DNA of 64,000 bases from Candidatus Desantisbacteria bacterium CG1_02_49_89 (GCA_001871075.1 MNUP01000033.1:437-64436); one strand, 5' to 3'; positions 1,874 to 59,408 are shown, counted from the first letter of the stretch. Notes: generated by a model not told the origin, from the sequence alone. Program-made: numbers and translations.

Positions 1874-3025
1874 TTAATAATTACGGTTTTTCTTTATGTT
1901 TTCCGAGTTCAGGGATATCAATCTTTTAAGTCTGGATTCCTTTTCTTCCTCGGATACCTTATCCTGCATGCCAAGCGCTTTCGTATTAGGGCGGTCAGAG
2001 TATTTGAACATAAAAGCGTTGTTGAAACGCGTTCCCTTTACTATTTCAAGGGTCTGCAGGAAATCTTCTTCGGTCTCACCCGGGAACCCCACTATTATAT
2101 CCGTGCTGAAAACCGCGCCTGGTATCCTGTCTTTTATCGTCTTGATCAGGTCTAAGTAATGCTTCCTTGTGTATCCCCTGTTCATCGCCTCAAGGATCCT
2201 GTCTGACCCTGACTGCAAAGGCAGGTGGAATTCTTTTTCCATTTTATCCGATGCCGCTATTGCCTCTATCAGTTCCAGCGTCATGTCTTTCGGGTGCGCT
2301 GTCATATAACTTATTTTTTCAATTCCCTTTATCTTCTCTATTTCTTTCAGCAGTTCAACAAAATCATTACTTTTTGACGCACGACGCACGACGCACGACG
2401 CACGACTGTCTTTATAGGAGCACACATTCTGCCCCAGCAGCATTATCTCTTTAAAACCACCTGCGGCCACCCTCTCTGCTTCCGCGATGATCTCATCTGC
2501 CGGCCTGCTCTGTTCTCTTCCGCGCAAATGCGGCACAACGCAGTAGGAGCAGAAGTTGTCGCACCCCCTTATGATAGGCACGTATGCCATTTCCATATTT
2601 TTCCTCTCCACCGGAGGGAGAGGATTAAGGTGAGGGGGATTAAATTTCCCCGTCTCAACGATCCTTGACTTATTCTCTATCGCCTTTTTTACGAAATCGC
2701 CGGCTATACCGATGTTTCCGGGGCCAATAACAACCTGGACCCAGGGAAACCTGTTTAAAATGCCTGTTTTCTCCTGCTCAGCAAGGCACCCGCACACGCC
2801 TACCAGCAGGCCCGGTTTCTTTTCCTTGAGCTTCTTTGTTTCGGAAAGTATCGTGTAGAACCGCTGGACCGCGTGCTCTCTCACAGAACAGGTATTGAAA
2901 ATTATAATATCTGCTTCATCCGCATCTTTTATCTGTCTGAATCCGTGTTCAACCAATTGCCCGGCAATGCATTGCGAATCGTATTCATTCATCTGGCATC
3001 CAAAGGTTTTTATGTAAAATTTCAT
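1874..3025 (-). CDS. MiaB/RimO-family radical-SAM methylthiotransferase
   Basis: N-terminal MTTase domain (IKTFGCQMNEYDS). Radical-SAM CxxxCxxC (CDNFCSYCVVP). At 383 aa it appears to lack a C-terminal TRAM domain. It contains an in-frame heptamer array (GACGCAC)x4. Confidence 0.75.
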   Translation of the reverse strand: MKFYIKTFGCQMNEYDSQCIAGQLVEHGFRQIKDADEADIIIFNTCSVREHAVQRFYTILSETKKLKEKKPGLLVGVCGCLAEQEKTGILNRFPWVQVVIGPGNIGIAGDFVKKAIENKSRIVETGKFNPPHLNPLPPVERKNMEMAYVPIIRGCDNFCSYCVVPHLRGREQSRPADEIIAEAERVAAGGFKEIMLLGQNVCSYKDSRASCVVRRASKSNDFVELLKEIEKIKGIEKISYMTAHPKDMTLELIEAIAASDKMEKEFHLPLQSGSDRILEAMNRGYTRKHYLDLIKTIKDRIPGAVFSTDIIVGFPGETEEDFLQTLEIVKGTRFNNAFMFKYSDRPNTKALGMQDKVSEEEKESRLKRLISLNSENIKKNRNY

Positions 3026-3315
3026 TTTAAAAACCTCTGGATGATTTTACCGCAGGTTCCTATCAATTTAATTTTTCTTTTCTTTGACATAGTTTTTATT
3101 TTTCTCTCTGTCTTCATCGCATGCCTGCGGAATACGTATACCTTAGCATATACCAGCTTCACGGGCCCCCTGCCTTTTACATATTTAGCCCCTTTGCCCG
3201 TGTTGTGCAGGGCGATCCGTTTTTTCAGGTTATTGGTATAACCCGTATAGAATGTCCCGTCTTTGCATTTAAGGATATATACGAAAAACCTTTTTATGCT
3301 TTTCGCGCGTTTCAT
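3022..3315 (-). CDS. GIY-YIG nuclease-domain protein (UPF0213/YhbQ-like)
   Basis: FFVYILKCKDGTFYTGYTNNLKKRIALHN is the classic GIY-YIG signature. 97 aa. It overlaps the upstream gene by 4 nt. Confidence 0.7.
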   Translation of the reverse strand: MKRAKSIKRFFVYILKCKDGTFYTGYTNNLKKRIALHNTGKGAKYVKGRGPVKLVYAKVYVFRRHAMKTERKIKTMSKKRKIKLIGTCGKIIQRFLK

Positions 3316-7820: not shown

Positions 7821-8041
7821 ATGGCCTCTTTAATAAATAGATTAAATATATAATATAAAACCTGAAAATAGAGAATTGAAAATTGACCACAATCTCGCAA
7901 TCTCCTTTATCTATTGCTCTATTTTCTATTGCTCCAGTTTTCCGCAGTGCATATCAAAAAGACAGAAAATAGAAAATTGAGCAATAGACCGTCCGCCAAT
8001 CATGCTGGGCGGACTCTGATTTTTCGCAGAGCGAAAAATCT

Positions 8042-8115
8042 GGGCGGTACCCGGCTCGAACGGGTGACCTCCACGATGTCAACGTGGCACTCTAACCAAC
8101 TGAGCTAACCGCCCG
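8042..8115 (-). tRNA. tRNA-Val(GAC)
   Basis: Minus-strand sequence GGGCGGTTAGCTCAGTTGGTTAGAGTGCCACGTTGACATCGTGGAGGTCACCCGTTCGAGCCGGGTACCGCCCA folds as a cloverleaf with anticodon GAC. Confidence 0.85.
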
Positions 8116-8210
8116 CACATTCAAACACTCTTAGCGAAGTTGAAAACTGCGACCACAGGGAGTCCCGCATCTCCGATGGTACATCGGAGCATCGGGGAGC
8201 TAACCGCCCG

Positions 8211-8289
8211 TTTTAATACAGTTAAAAGTTGCCCGCCCCGACAACCATCGGGGCGAGGTCTCGCCCTGATTGAAATCAGGGCGGAAAAG
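8211..8289. repeat. Twin-hairpin element, copy A (CCCCGACAACCATCGGGG + CGCCCTGATTGAAATCAGGGCG)
   Basis: About 95% identical to 58728-58805. A diverged relative lies at 8623-8690. Confidence 0.5.
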
Positions 8290-8395
8290 CTGAAAGTTAA
8301 AAACTAAAATAGCCTGATAGAAAATAGAAAATTGAGAATAGACCGTCCCGATGTAACATCGGGACTCCACCACTTTTCCCTTGTTGGGAAAAGTG

Positions 8396-8470
8396 GTGCC
8401 AAGGGGCGGAATTGAACCGCCGACGCACGGATTTTCAGTCCGTCGCTCTACCAGACTGAGCTACCTTGGC
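8396..8470 (-). tRNA. tRNA-Phe(GAA), with CCA encoded
   Basis: GCCAAGGTAGCTCAGTCTGGTAGAGCGACGGACTGAAAATCCGTGCGTCGGCGGTTCAATTCCGCCCCTTGGCACCA. Confidence 0.85.
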
Positions 8471-8756
8471 ACATCCTGGTTAATGATAAAGAAAAGATTG
8501 ATGAACCTTTCAGTCCGTCGCTCTTCCTGGGTGATCTGCATAAAAGAATGCGCGTCGCTTTGCTCTTCCACCCGTCGAAGACATAAGTGATGTCTTCGAC
8601 CCAGACTGAGCTACCTTGGCACGTTAAATACAGTGATGAGTGAAAAGTGTCGCCCCTTCGGCGACCCGCCGTTGAGGCGGGAAAAGTCAAAAGATCATAC
8701 AACAGACTGCCTGTCCGTAATTACTGATATTCGCTTAATTGATTGACGCTTTTTAT

Positions 8757-27929: not shown

Positions 27930-28160
27930 TTGTCTCTCCGAAAGTTTGCCCTACTTTCAAGCGCGATGAATCGCGCCGCTACATAAACATAGCAGTAACT
28001 TGACACTTGATACTTGACTCTTGATACTAATTTAACCACGGATTCTCACGAATTTCCACGGATTTTCAAATTGAATTAACTTGTAAACTACACTTAAACC
28101 TTAGGTTAACACTGTTTTAGATAAAATCTTTGTCGTTGATTCATAACTCATAATTCATAA

Positions 28161-29118: not shown

Positions 29119-29455
29119 GAAAACACTAAAGAAATTATTTACAGGGAACTTAAGAGAACTTAAAAGGCTATAAGATATTTTTCACAGGGATTTAAAGAGA
29201 TTTAAAAAAATCAGCCACGGATGTCCACGTATAATACTCACTTGTCAACTATATAAACTGCATTTGCAACCACGGATTCCCACGGATTTTCACAGATTAC
29301 AACTTTGCAAACTCTGTAAACCATGTAAACTGTATTTGCAACTACGCGATTTCACTCGATTTTCACAAGATTAGTCTTTCACTGGACACTGGCCACTTAA
29401 AGTGAGTCCCCCTTCTTGCTTTTCTGAGAAAGCAGGGGGGCAACTGGACACTGAA

Positions 29456-45040: not shown

Positions 45041-45071
<31 letters not shown>

Positions 45072-45140
45072 GTTAGATTATAATTATTTCATAATTTCTA
45101 TTTCTAACAAACTATAAAACGAACCAACTAACAAACTCTA

Positions 45141-53332: not shown

Positions 53333-53587
53333 TTAATATAGTCAGATATATAAATAGAATTGAGAATTTAAAAACGGGTCGGCTTCGAACCATATTTAAA
53401 AGCTGAAAATGGATAATAGAGCAATAGACCATCCCGATGTAACATCGGGACTCTATTTTTTCGCTCTGCGAATGCTCAATACTGAGAATGGAAAATAGAG
53501 CAATAGACCGCAATTTCGCAATTCCTTTCTCTATTTTCTATTGTTCTATTGCTCCATTGCTCTATTTTTTCGCTCTGCGAAAAAATG

Positions 53588-53770: not shown

Positions 53771-53800
53771 TTTGCGAGGGAGAGGACTTGGTCCTTTGTG
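53771..53800 (-). pseudogene. tRNA-Leu 3'-end remnant followed by the family post-tRNA hairpin
   Basis: TTTGCGAGGGAGAGGACTTGGTCC mimics the tRNA-Leu(TAG) 3' end TCTGCGAGGGAAGGGACTTGAACCC. No complete cloverleaf. Confidence 0.3.
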
Positions 53801-54029
53801 AATCTTCGCCAGAACCGGGTGAAGTCTCAGATTCACCCGGAGCCGGGGAATTTTGCTGACGCCCCGATGGTAGTCATCGGGGCTTTACCAGTGGCGCAAA
53901 ATTCCTTTCAAGTCTTTGTCAAAACTTGAAAATGGAAAATTGAACAATAGACCGCAATCTCCTTAAGTATTTATCTATTGCTCTATTCTCTATTTTCGAT
54001 TGCTCCGATTTTTCGCCTCGCGAAAAATC

Positions 54030-54111
54030 TGCGAGGGAAGGGACTTGAACCCCTAAGCCTTTCGGCATACGGTCCTAAGCCGTACGCGTATACCAGTTCC
54101 GCCACCCTCGC
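54030..54111 (-). tRNA. tRNA-Leu(TAG)
   Basis: GCGAGGGTGGCGGAACTGGTATACGCGTACGGCTTAGGACCGTATGCCGAAAGGCTTAGGGGTTCAAGTCCCTTCCCTCGCA. Confidence 0.85.
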
Positions 54112-54174
54112 TTACAATCTATTCTCCATTTTCTATTTTCGGACTCTGAAAATAGAACAATAGAGCAATTGACC

Positions 54175-54260
54175 GTCCCGACCGTAGCCCGCCACGGTTA
54201 TTGGCGGGCGCAGGTCCCTGTGTTAAGTTCCGGTTTTATCGGAACTACAGGGATCGGGAC
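54175..54260. repeat. Structured element, copy 2 (spacer between tRNA-Lys and tRNA-Leu)
   Basis: Near-identical to 38353-38439. Confidence 0.45.
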
Positions 54261-54286
54261 TCTGATCTTTCACCTCGTGAAAGATC

Positions 54287-54358: not shown

Positions 54359-54475
54359 ATATTACTACGATGAAAGAAAATAGAAAATGGAAAATAGACC
54401 ACAATCTCGCTATTCCTTAATCCATTGCTCTATTCTCTATTGCTCGATTGTTCTGTTTTTCCCGAAGGGAAAAAC

Positions 54476-57596: not shown

Positions 57597-57820
57597 GTGT
57601 CAGAATGTCAGAGCAGAATTATGGCTCTTTGACTTATATCTTCAATACTTTTTAATCAAGCCGCGTTTTCCTTTCTATATTTTCAATTGCTCTGTTTTCA
57701 GCTCTGCGAAATAAAATCTGAAAATGGAAAATAGAGCAATAGACCGAAATGTCGCTTCTTTTTTCTCTATTTTCTATTGTTCTATTGCTCCATTGCTCTG
57801 ATTTTCCCTGCGGGAAAATC

Positions 57821-57899: not shown

Positions 57900-58042
57900 A
57901 CCTAATAATCCATTTTCTATTTTCTATTATCGATTACTCGATTGCTCTGTTTTTCCCGCTGGTACTGCCTGAGAATAGAGAATGGAACATAAACCGTCCC
58001 GATGTTACATCGGGACTCTGATTTTTCGCTTCGCGAAAAATC

Positions 58043-58116: not shown

Positions 58117-58223
58117 ACACCCATAAAAACAGTGTCAAAGAGTCAGAGTGTCAGAGTGTCAAAGTAAAAGATAAGAATCCTTAGATATTTGGAGCGAAGG
58201 GAAACTGCCTGTCCGCCGACTTG

Positions 58224-58293: not shown

Positions 58294-58432
58294 AAGCATA
58301 TTGCGGCAAACCCACGACGTTTAGTTAATACACAAATACCCTTAAACAAAAAGAACTAGAGAATAGAAAATTGAGCAATAGACCGTCCCGATGTCACATC
58401 GGGGCTCCAAATTTTCGCGTTGCGAAATTTTA

Positions 58433-58507
58433 TCGGGAAGGTGGGATTTGAACCCACGGCCTCCTGCTCCCAAAGCAGGCGCGCTAGCCAGGCTGCGCTA
58501 CTCCCCG
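58433..58507 (-). tRNA. tRNA-Pro(TGG)
   Basis: CGGGGAGTAGCGCAGCCTGGCTAGCGCGCCTGCTTTGGGAGCAGGAGGCCGTGGGTTCAAATCCCACCTTCCCGA. Confidence 0.85.
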
Positions 58508-58727
58508 TCGCCTGCTTTGCTCGCCCAGGGCATTCTGCAGGCGAACAAAGCGTTTGTTCGTTCCACTCACTCCATGCCCGTGAACGACATAAGTGATGTC
58601 GTTCACCCCAAAGCAGGCGCGCTAATCCTGTGTGCTATGCAATAACGGAAGTGTGGCTCGTTCCACTCGCATCGCACCCGTAAACGACATAAGTGATGTC
58701 GTTTACCCAGGCTGCGCTACTCCCCGC

Positions 58728-58805
58728 GTCTAAACAGTTAAAAGTTGCCCGCCCCGATAGCCATCGGGGCGAGGTCTCGCCCTGATTGAAATCAGGGCGG
58801 AAAAG
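58728..58805. repeat. Twin-hairpin element, copy B
   Basis: CGTCTAAACAGTTAAAAGTTGCCCGCCCCGATAGCCATCGGGGCGAGGTCTCGCCCTGATTGAAATCAGGGCGGAAAAG, as at 8211-8289. Confidence 0.5.
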
Positions 58806-58817
58806 ATAAAAATTAAA

Positions 58818-59408
58818 TTAAAACAGTTTCGAAAGAACCTTTTTTACTTTCCGAAGGGCTTTTGCGCGGTGGCTGATCCTGTTCTTTGTTTTCATACCCA
58901 GCTCTGCGAAAGTTTTGCCGTATCCTTCCGGGATGAAGACCGTATCATAGCCAAAACCTTCCGTTCCCTTTATTTCCGCGGATATCCTGCCTTTGCATAT
59001 CCCGGTAACTGTTTTTACCGGTCCTTTTGATCCGGCTAAAGCAACAATGCATGTAAATCTTGCTTTTCGTTTGCCCGGTCGCATGTCCTTCATTAACCTT
59101 AGCAGTTTCCTGTTATTATCAGCGTAAGTGCAATCCTCTCCAGCGAACCTTGAAGAGCGAACTCCCGGCTTGCCCTTAAGCGCCCCTACCACCAAACCTG
59201 AATCATCGGCAAGGGCCATTCTGCCGGTTTTCCGGGAGATCACAGTTGCTTTTTTAACCGCGTTAGCCCTGAAAGTCCTGCCGTTTTCCACAACTTCAGG
59301 CATCGGTGGAAAATCCTTCAGGGTCAATATTTTTATTTTAAGCCCCCTAAGGATCTTCTTAATTTCGCGAACTTTGTCAAAATTGTTTGTTGCCAGCACC
59401 AGTTCCAT
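58818..59408 (-). CDS. rdgB: Non-canonical purine NTP pyrophosphatase (RdgB/HAM1)
   Basis: MELVLATNNFDKVREIK. Ham1 fold motifs (FGYD). Confidence 0.85.
   Translation of the reverse strand: MELVLATNNFDKVREIKKILRGLKIKILTLKDFPPMPEVVENGRTFRANAVKKATVISRKTGRMALADDSGLVVGALKGKPGVRSSRFAGEDCTYADNNRKLLRLMKDMRPGKRKARFTCIVALAGSKGPVKTVTGICKGRISAEIKGTEGFGYDTVFIPEGYGKTFAELGMKTKNRISHRAKALRKVKKVLSKLF

Follow-up and report, generated by a model that had tools for sequence, protein, structure and literature searches.

The locus described here is the tRNA-Pro(UGG) gene of a member of the Candidatus Desantisbacteria, which lies with its leader among the housekeeping genes rdgB, RNase PH, fumarase, efp and glmU within the 64,000 nt of DNA analysed (this whole stretch is termed the window, and sequences from relatives carry L numbers). 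The ThrRS encoded in the window matches, with 100% identity, a protein assigned at NCBI to Candidatus Desantisbacteria. Read in tRNA sense, the order of features is a twin hairpin, a displaced copy of tRNA nt 1-20, the insert E2, a displaced copy of nt 21-37, the insert E1, a 15-nt junction and the intact tRNA (Table 1), E2 and E1 being the first and second inserts of a first-pass annotation of this DNA. That annotation had recognised the order of fragments and hairpins, which our analysis bears out, with the nt 1-20 fragment lying exactly where it had been placed (58707-58726). The fragment of about nt 21-38 that it put at 58606-58623 is real, its true limits lying one base further on (58607-58624), and an inverted copy of the anticodon-stem sequence, claimed for 58509-58530, is present in a shorter form, as an exact 11-mer (CGCCTGCTTTG, the reverse complement of tRNA nt 25-35) at 58509-58519. 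Within this junction the AGCAGG at 58511-58516 is equally readable as a remnant of tRNA nt 38-43, and the orthologous junction of the relative L007, GAGCAAAGCAATCAT, follows the C28>T / G42>A difference of the L007 tRNA.

E1 starts immediately past G37 of the displaced 5' tRNA copy and comprises a P1 hairpin, GTGAACGACATCACTTATGTCGTTCAC, and a P2 helix (GGGCAT/ATGCCC), whilst E2, with the P1 hairpin GTAAACGACATCACTTATGTCGTTTAC, starts immediately past G18G19 and splits nt 1-20 from nt 21-37 without target duplication, a single tRNA nucleotide (nt 20) being lost or replaced at its 3' junction. The stems of both are perfect over 11 bp (GTGAACGACATAAGTGATGTCGTTCAC at 58580-58606 and GTAAACGACATAAGTGATGTCGTTTAC at 58680-58706). 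Identity between the two inserts is 84% over a 51-nt ungapped core and 64% over a full alignment of 84 columns, for which the previously given figure of about 75% is a fair middle value. Their 15-mer hairpin core is, as had also been claimed, common to the tRNA-Phe locus, occurring three times in the window (8580, 58586 and 58686) against 0.09 expected by chance, and the twin hairpin recurs, in the flank of the tRNA-Val fragment (Table 1).

Table 1. Positions of the tRNA-Pro leader features and of related features in the window and in relatives (L numbers).
Feature	Sequence	Position	Strand	Remarks
Intact tRNA-Pro(UGG)	window	58433-58507	-	ARAGORN; Rfam tRNA 66.8 bits; CCA not encoded
E1/tRNA junction, 15 nt	window	58508-58522	-	sense strand GAGCAAAGCAGGCGA
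E1, 84 nt	window	58523-58606	-	covariance model match 81.3 bits
Displaced tRNA-Pro fragment, canonical nt 21-37 (raw nt 22-39)	window	58607-58624	-	18/18 identical to tRNA
E2, 82 nt	window	58625-58706	-	covariance model match 82.4 bits
Displaced tRNA-Pro fragment, nt 1-20	window	58707-58726	-	20/20 identical to tRNA
Twin-hairpin element	window	58728-58805	.	between rdgB and displaced fragment; second copy 8211-8290
Twin hairpin, other genomes	L092	760-820		
Twin hairpin, other genomes	L023	5955-6015, 6160-6222		diverged, upstream of tRNA-Ser
Intact tRNA-Phe	window	8394-8470		
tRNA-Phe fragment, raw nt 22-38	window	8508-8524		flanks E copy
E copy at tRNA-Phe	window	8524-8600	-	covariance model match 88 bits
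tRNA-Phe fragment, nt 1-20	window	8601-8620		flanks E copy
tRNA-Val	window	8041-8114		
Non-E hairpin CTCCGATGgtaCATCGGAG	window	8169-8190		between tRNA-Val fragment and tRNA-Val
Displaced tRNA-Val fragment, nt 1-13	window	8197-8209	-	
97-aa GIY-YIG gene	window	3022-3315	-	only GIY-YIG gene of the window; unrelated operon
GIY-YIG ORF at tRNA-Pro	L090	2401-2655		between displaced fragment and intact tRNA
GIY-YIG ORF at tRNA-Pro(CGG)	L023	2079-2336		upstream of fragment, ending inside fragment
GIY-YIG ORF at tRNA-Ser(GGA)	L023	6384-6638		15-nt tRNA 3'-end copy after ORF
GIY-YIG ORF at tRNA-Ala	L094	897-1151		
GIY-YIG ORF at tRNA-Ala	L097	643-906		
GIY-YIG ORF at tRNA-Pro	L095	430-798		
Y copies	window	53773-53914	-	
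Y copies	L007	9827-9960, 10053-10230		
Y copies	L011	2206-2330		
Y copies	L020	5880-6035, 5100-5430		
CCGATG-N(3-5)-CATCGG hairpins	window	8173, 8348, 53434, 53864, 57999, 58388		
CCGATG-N(3-5)-CATCGG hairpins	L090	2360		
CCGATG-N(3-5)-CATCGG hairpins	L094	850		
CCGATG-N(3-5)-CATCGG hairpins	L095	503, 914		
GATTTTTCGC..GCGAAAAATC flanks	window	53540-53586, 53960-54030, 54160-54285, 54400-54475, 57740-57820, 57960-58040, 58350-58432, 7960-8040, 8300-8393		

The inserts belong to an element, here called E, of ~80-84 nt that starts with a hairpin of the form GT....GACATCACTTATGTC....AC, perfect over 11 bp and with an invariant top (GACAT-CACTT-ATGTC), and whose two ends are joined by a second helix of 6 bp (GGGTG/CACCC, GGGCAT/ATGCCC or GGGTAT/ATACCC). 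Eight copies could be aligned over ~82 columns, in which the ends are conserved whilst the centre varies. In the helices 93% of cells are paired, against only 29-52% in slid controls, six pairs are changed on both sides, and none of 500 shuffles reached the observed covariation; E is one structured family, its two helices backed by compensatory changes. As G-U pairs are almost absent, the pairs give no reading of the strand or of whether the fold is one of RNA or of DNA. A pseudoknot between the hairpin loop (CACUU) and the body (GAGUG) was considered and rejected, being missing from Phe-type copies.

A covariance model built from the eight-copy alignment was used to search 144 kb (the window and its relatives) and gave 12 full-length matches, which correspond to nine distinct copies, three in the window and six in relatives, the matches in L018, L017 and L024 re-sampling loci already counted. 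The model recovered every known copy at 50-88 bits and added a diverged one upstream of tRNA-Ser(GGA), and a hairpin scan of metagenomes had found copies at tRNA-Ser(UGA), tRNA-Phe, tRNA-Pro(CGG) and the orthologous tRNA-Pro(UGG) of a relative. All nine distinct copies adjoin tRNA genes and are oriented as these are; beyond them the model had no match in the rest of the window and of the 144 kb, nor in L092-L098, and only two of the ten tRNAs of the window carry E. No ORF was found in E, and an Rfam scan of the leader at gathering and E-value thresholds matched the tRNA alone, with no family for E. The hairpin pattern had three chance matches, away from tRNAs, in 185,579 species genomes, and the 64 matches of the 15-mer in viral contigs can all be put down to chance, since none has the extended stem. 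A literature search found no description of this arrangement.

All nine copies begin directly after GG(G), with G18G19 as the preceding bases in D loops and G37 as the preceding base in anticodon loops. Of the six D-loop copies, four have an A as the base following E, at a position that is T in the tRNA (C in the tRNA-Pro of the window). The conserved 3' end of E was considered as a decayed target-site duplication and rejected, as it is the same at tRNA-Ser, whose D arm differs. At the tRNA-Phe locus of the window the split points are those of tRNA-Pro, the order being nt 1-20, E, raw nt 22-38, a 37-nt spacer and the tRNA. The first-pass annotation had suggested that the same process acted twice at tRNA-Pro, at D-loop and anticodon-loop positions, and this is upheld in that both inserts are full-length members of the one family (82.4 and 81.3 bits), are equally oriented and each begin right after GG(G) in a tRNA loop.

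The order of events can be read from relatives, in which rdgB followed by tRNA-Pro is syntenic where RdgB is 65-68% identical to that of the window. The tRNA-Pro site is empty in L011 and L089, where a TTGAnn-17-TATAAT promoter runs straight into the tRNA, and occupied in the window, L007, L090 and L091. In L007 the same sigma-70 promoter is followed by an unbroken copy of nt 1-37, identical to L007's own tRNA, then by one E, the junction and the tRNA. In L090 and L091 it is followed by nt 1-11, a non-E hairpin, nt 13-26 and another hairpin, and L090 continues with nt 45-52, an 84-codon GIY-YIG reading frame and the intact tRNA. Because the promoter directly precedes the fragment in L007, L090 and L091 but the tRNA in L011 and L089, the nt 1-20 fragment is the ancestral 5' end of the tRNA-Pro gene, pushed upstream. 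Since L007 has the anticodon-loop copy only, behind its unbroken fragment, the D-loop copy E2 was a later insertion, which entered the existing fragment without generating a repeat, and the comparison shows two separate events. The window is an outgroup to L007 and closer relatives of L007 are without E, so either several losses took place or E inserted twice independently at the same nucleotide. In L092 (an 82% relative) the twin hairpin is conserved after rdgB.

At fourfold degenerate sites the window and L007 are 31% identical (322 sites), which is saturated, whilst E1 and the L007 copy at the same site are 87% identical, with 27/27 positions of the hairpin conserved. The Phe copy of the window is 84% identical to the tRNA-Pro(CGG) copy in L023 and 76% identical to the tRNA-Ser(UGA) copy in another genome. 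Near-identical copies at different tRNAs and in different genomes, despite saturated neutral sites, indicate that E is mobile or constrained rather than decayed junk. The tRNA-Phe site is empty in L098, a relative with 79% identity in ThrRS, and together with the near-copies of the Phe element at other tRNAs this implies that E moves between tRNA genes. The tRNA-Phe, tRNA-Cys and tRNA-Val genes of L098 (900-2000) also have toxin-antitoxin-type genes among them (DUF433 with a PIN domain and, recognised by eye alone, a small HicB-like ORF), which are another kind of insertion in the same tRNA cluster.

Displaced tRNA fragments are always terminal, starting at nt 1 or finishing at the 3' end. Several are decayed: the second fragment of L020 matches at 13/16 positions, the first fragment of L023 is mutated and split by another hairpin, and a tRNA-Leu 3' fragment in the window matches at 15/17. 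As judged from these sequences, fragment decay argues against a selected guide or decoy role.

Small GIY-YIG ORFs adjoin tRNA genes in relatives (Table 1), and all six of these adjoin a displaced fragment of the neighbouring tRNA, five of them lying between the fragment and the intact tRNA. The encoded proteins consist of the catalytic domain only (~85 aa), and the ORFs of L094, L097 and L023 stop inside the tRNA copy at the conserved T8-A9-G10 (...ATG GGC CCG TAG). The literature search gave no account of such nuclease genes beside tRNA fragments in bacterial chromosomes. Just one of the six cassettes (L023) has E copies beside it, so that the link between E and the nuclease is one of locus and not of sequence. 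Searching the tRNA-Pro leader of the window (58400-58830) by tblastn with three queries gave no GIY-YIG match, and no nuclease or transposase gene was found in or beside this leader. The one GIY-YIG gene of the window lies between phosphodiesterase and MiaB-like radical-SAM genes with overlapping start and stop codons, and has a homologue in L020 (1113-1313) at a similar distance from the tRNA cluster; its product is a candidate trans-acting nuclease.

The flanks of the tRNA genes hold other repeat modules. tRNA-Leu, Gly, Phe and Val have on their 3' side a second structured element (~75-130 nt), termed ‘Y’, whose first bases are the T-loop sequence of the adjacent tRNA in reverse complement (GGACTTGAA, GGATTTGAA or GGACTCGAA) and whose last 17-51 nt repeat that tRNA directly, from its T loop to its 3' end and, in L007, on into the flank. 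Y has a covarying 10-bp stem (GACACTTTTC/GAAAAGTGTC, GACACTGGTC/GACCAGTGTC or GGAATTTTGC/GCAAAATTCC) and is tandemly repeated after tRNA-Val in L020. The window copy of Y had no Rfam match at gathering thresholds. Hairpins of the form CCGATG-N(3-5)-CATCGG number six in the window, against 0.03 expected by chance, all in tRNA flanks, and in tRNA pseudo-copies of L090, L094 and L095 such a hairpin replaces exactly the anticodon arm (nt 27-44). The twin hairpin is a separate repeat family, every copy of which closely precedes the 5' end of a tRNA or a displaced 5' fragment. Directly 3' of tRNAs in the window stands a hairpin type GATTTTTCGC..GCGAAAAATC, followed by AATAGAG-rich inverted repeats; such modules are missing from L007 and L011, where the same tRNAs lie 10-20 nt apart, from which it follows that the window lineage expanded its tRNA spacers with repeat modules. 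Four tandem AGTTGGTT octamers at 45043-45077 match the tRNA-Val D loop in inverted form, and tandem AGTGTCAG octamers lie upstream of tRNA-Arg(TCT) at 58131-58177. The repeat CACGGATTTTCA, present on both sides of a cyclase gene (28047-28089 and 29271-29313), was considered as a match to tRNA-Phe and set aside as an unrelated intergenic motif.

The reading that we favour, with a probability of roughly 0.55, is that an insertion into the tRNA-Pro gene, one that restored its target, left a scar in the leader, and that a non-autonomous element specific for tRNA loops then inserted into this scar in nested fashion. To judge from the relatives, an insertion into the tRNA-Pro gene would first have brought or made a replacement 5' part, displacing the original 5' end and its ancestral upstream context upstream as a dead fragment of nt 1 to ~43, with a complete tRNA rebuilt downstream. 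The likeliest agent would be a homing-endonuclease-type cassette, because the interval between fragment and tRNA in relatives still carries a GIY-YIG gene of ~85 aa. As the sequences themselves show, the displaced fragment bears an E directly past G37, and a second E later entered it past G18G19, leaving the pieces 1-20 and 21-37. E would target the GG of tRNA loops, and its survivors would be found only in dispensable fragments because landing in a working tRNA gene would be lethal. As the whole array of L007 lies between a readable promoter and the tRNA, the array is probably part of the transcript and cut off by RNase P as a 5' leader, which would render it harmless. E enters 3' of a short motif, leaves no target duplication and has a terminal hairpin, which is reminiscent of single-strand transposition as in IS200/IS605 and REP-type elements, the alternative being a structure-specific GIY-YIG nuclease acting in trans. 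Against nested insertion stands the 100% identity of the window fragments, which would call for gene conversion or selection if the anticodon-loop insertion is as old as the split between the window and L007. Further points against it are the failure to find a nuclease or transposase gene at this leader, the presence of E beside a single one of the GIY-YIG cassettes, the lack of E in closer relatives of L007, the single terminal hairpin of E (unlike IS200/IS605 ends), the A that follows four of the D-loop copies and the lack of a recognisable promoter ahead of the window leader. A wider reading, which we think doubtful, would unite E, the CCGATG..CATCGG hairpins, the twin hairpin, Y and the minimal GIY-YIG genes in a new mobile system that recognises the folds of tRNA genes, enters their loops, restores the gene by duplicating it from the point of entry onwards to its end and uses the tRNA promoter and RNase P for expression and clean-up.

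The array could instead be a functional cis-acting RNA in which the 5'-half mimic and the E modules regulate the folding, RNase P processing or level of the tRNA, possibly because the mimic and the true 5' half compete to pair with the 3' acceptor strand. The first-pass annotation had raised the possibility of alternative pairings, and folding of the 298-nt leader with the tRNA does predict them, at -129 kcal/mol (z = -4.0). In the predicted minimum free energy structure the distal 1-20 fragment pairs with the 3' acceptor strand of the tRNA, the two fragments re-form the D stem across E2, and the fragment of nt 21-37 is paired over 10 bp with the tail of E1 and the junction. Capture of the acceptor strand is likewise predicted in L007, again with a fold more stable than shuffled sequences (z = -3.9). 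Also in keeping with a regulatory RNA are the conservation of E well above that of fourfold degenerate sites, its covarying helices, the clear promoter of L007, which drives fragment, E and tRNA as a single transcript, and the exact match of the fragments to each species' own tRNA despite six differing positions between the tRNA-Pro of the window and that of L007. Nevertheless we consider such a role unlikely: close relatives function with empty sites (L011, L089 and L098), E is present at so few tRNAs of the window, the decayed or interrupted fragments of L020 and L023 speak against a maintained match to the tRNA, and the same E subfamily occurs at Phe, Pro(CGG) and Ser across genomes, as for a mobile element. 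Apart from the acceptor-strand capture the predicted L007 fold differs from that of the window, and the competing pairings, possible as modelled, are a trivial outcome of the duplication and no evidence of function. In the promoter scan neither strand of the window leader yielded a sigma-70 site, nor could a promoter be recognised ahead of this leader.

Distinctly less probable is that the fragments are attL/attR-type scars of a tyrosine or serine recombinase, with E as what is left of the attachment-site arms, a miniature element mobilised in trans by an integrase. Direct repeats that run from a tRNA loop to the gene end are like integrase identity blocks, the 3'-side Y elements carry 17-51-nt repeats from the T loop and a junction, GGACC|AAGTCC, that is like a T arm, as a core site would be, and excision mediated by such repeats would yield the observed empty sites. 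However, no integrase or recombinase gene was found among the window ORFs near the loci or in the flanks of relatives that were examined, the elements are only ~80-130 nt, and the repeat is the 5' part of the tRNA, which is atypical for tRNA-targeting integrases. Moreover, the D-loop copy E2 entered without creating a repeat, and the covariation of the E helices points to a folded single strand and not to duplex protein-binding arms.

We give little credence to an antisense guide RNA of the kind of the omega RNAs of TnpB/IscB or the crRNAs of Cas12/Cas13, with a scaffold that ends in a hairpin and a guide of 18-20 nt complementary to tRNA-Pro, guiding a protein to tRNA-Pro or to its gene. Eight of the nine hairpins, namely all those that have the GACATAAGTGATGTC core, are indeed followed on the plus strand by CC and then a tRNA-matching segment, mostly of 17-20 nt (39 nt in L007, and hairpin-interrupted in L023), and the two tandem units resemble a mini-array. 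Yet no promoter reads into the units from that strand, ORFs for TnpB, IscB or Cas proteins are missing from the vicinity, Rfam gave no omega-RNA or CRISPR match, the matching sites in intact tRNAs have no common adjacent motif, the L007 ‘guide’ would be of a length well outside that range, and in L020 and L023 the hairpin-proximal segment is mutated or interrupted by another hairpin, the reverse of what would be expected of a seed region.

A CRISPR-like array was rejected (two units only, 100-nt spacing and no cas genes), as were a split or intron-bearing tRNA, which would need the 3' half that is missing, and template and variable repeats of a DGR, the repeats here being identical. That the region consists of collapsed or chimeric repeats, for which speak its repeat-rich nature and the contig of the closest relative (L092), which stops inside the twin hairpin, we regard as practically out of the question: many assemblies contain the rdgB product neighbouring the locus, 451 bp (58380-58830) are 100% identical across six contigs from six samples put together by three pipelines (JGI, MEGAHIT k141 and SPAdes), so that the array is not an assembly artefact, a possibility which the first-pass annotation had left standing, and related architecture was assembled independently in other species.

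Several known systems resemble this arrangement in part. In fungal mitochondria, GIY-YIG insertions leave a displaced partial copy of the host gene. As with free-standing GIY-YIG homing genes, the relatives have a small ORF between a displaced terminal fragment and a rebuilt tRNA, the inserted DNA supplies a replacement end so that the gene stays functional, and occupied and empty alleles coexist. Unlike them, the window locus is without any ORF, the proteins of relatives are catalytic domains only, and the hosts are bacterial chromosomes, not phage or organelles. The nearest described case found is T4 SegB, a GIY-YIG homing endonuclease in a phage tRNA gene cluster (PMC2330249).

E itself shares with REP/REPIN-RAYT and IS200/IS605 palindrome elements its short, ORF-less form, a conserved hairpin with a covarying lower stem, insertion 3' of a short motif without target duplication, multiple copies per genome and a 3' end (NGG) of its own that resembles the target motif. 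It differs in having one 5' hairpin and, in place of a conserved local 3' hairpin, a 6-bp long-range helix, and in its strict confinement to tRNA loops, whereas REPs are usually spread across many intergenic regions; no Y1 transposase (TnpA/RAYT) was found among the scanned ORFs of the 64-kb window. Integrative elements that target tRNAs (phages, ICEs and islands, at the anticodon or T loop) likewise insert in a loop, make a direct repeat to the gene end and restore the tRNA, but in the present case it is the 5' part, not the 3' part, that has been duplicated, the inserts are ~80-100 nt with no integrase, and a second E copy came without a repeat. The likeness to TnpB/IscB omega RNAs lies in an antisense structured scaffold with ~18-20 nt identical to nearby DNA, and the difference in the lack of a nuclease gene, adjacent-motif logic, promoter or Rfam match and in ‘guides’ that decay elsewhere. 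Archaeal intron-containing and split tRNA genes come to mind because the breaks fall in the D loop and at nt 37/38, where introns canonically sit; the host here is, however, a bacterium, the interrupted copy is not continued by a 3' half, the intact tRNA stands downstream of it, and no bulge-helix-bulge motif was apparent when the junctions were read.

E appears to be an undescribed kind of genomic parasite living in tRNA leaders. Exact tRNA fragments in such leaders can confuse tRNA annotation and break assemblies. If the proposed reading is true, tRNA leaders in this candidate phylum would be a safe harbour in which small structured elements accumulate at no cost to the host, since the gene for the tRNA is rebuilt and the leader is cut off by RNase P, and the single-nucleotide precision of E for the D and anticodon loops of several tRNAs would represent a new targeting specificity. 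The link to minimal GIY-YIG genes suggests a bacterial chromosomal counterpart of the homing-endonuclease insertions of phage and organelles.
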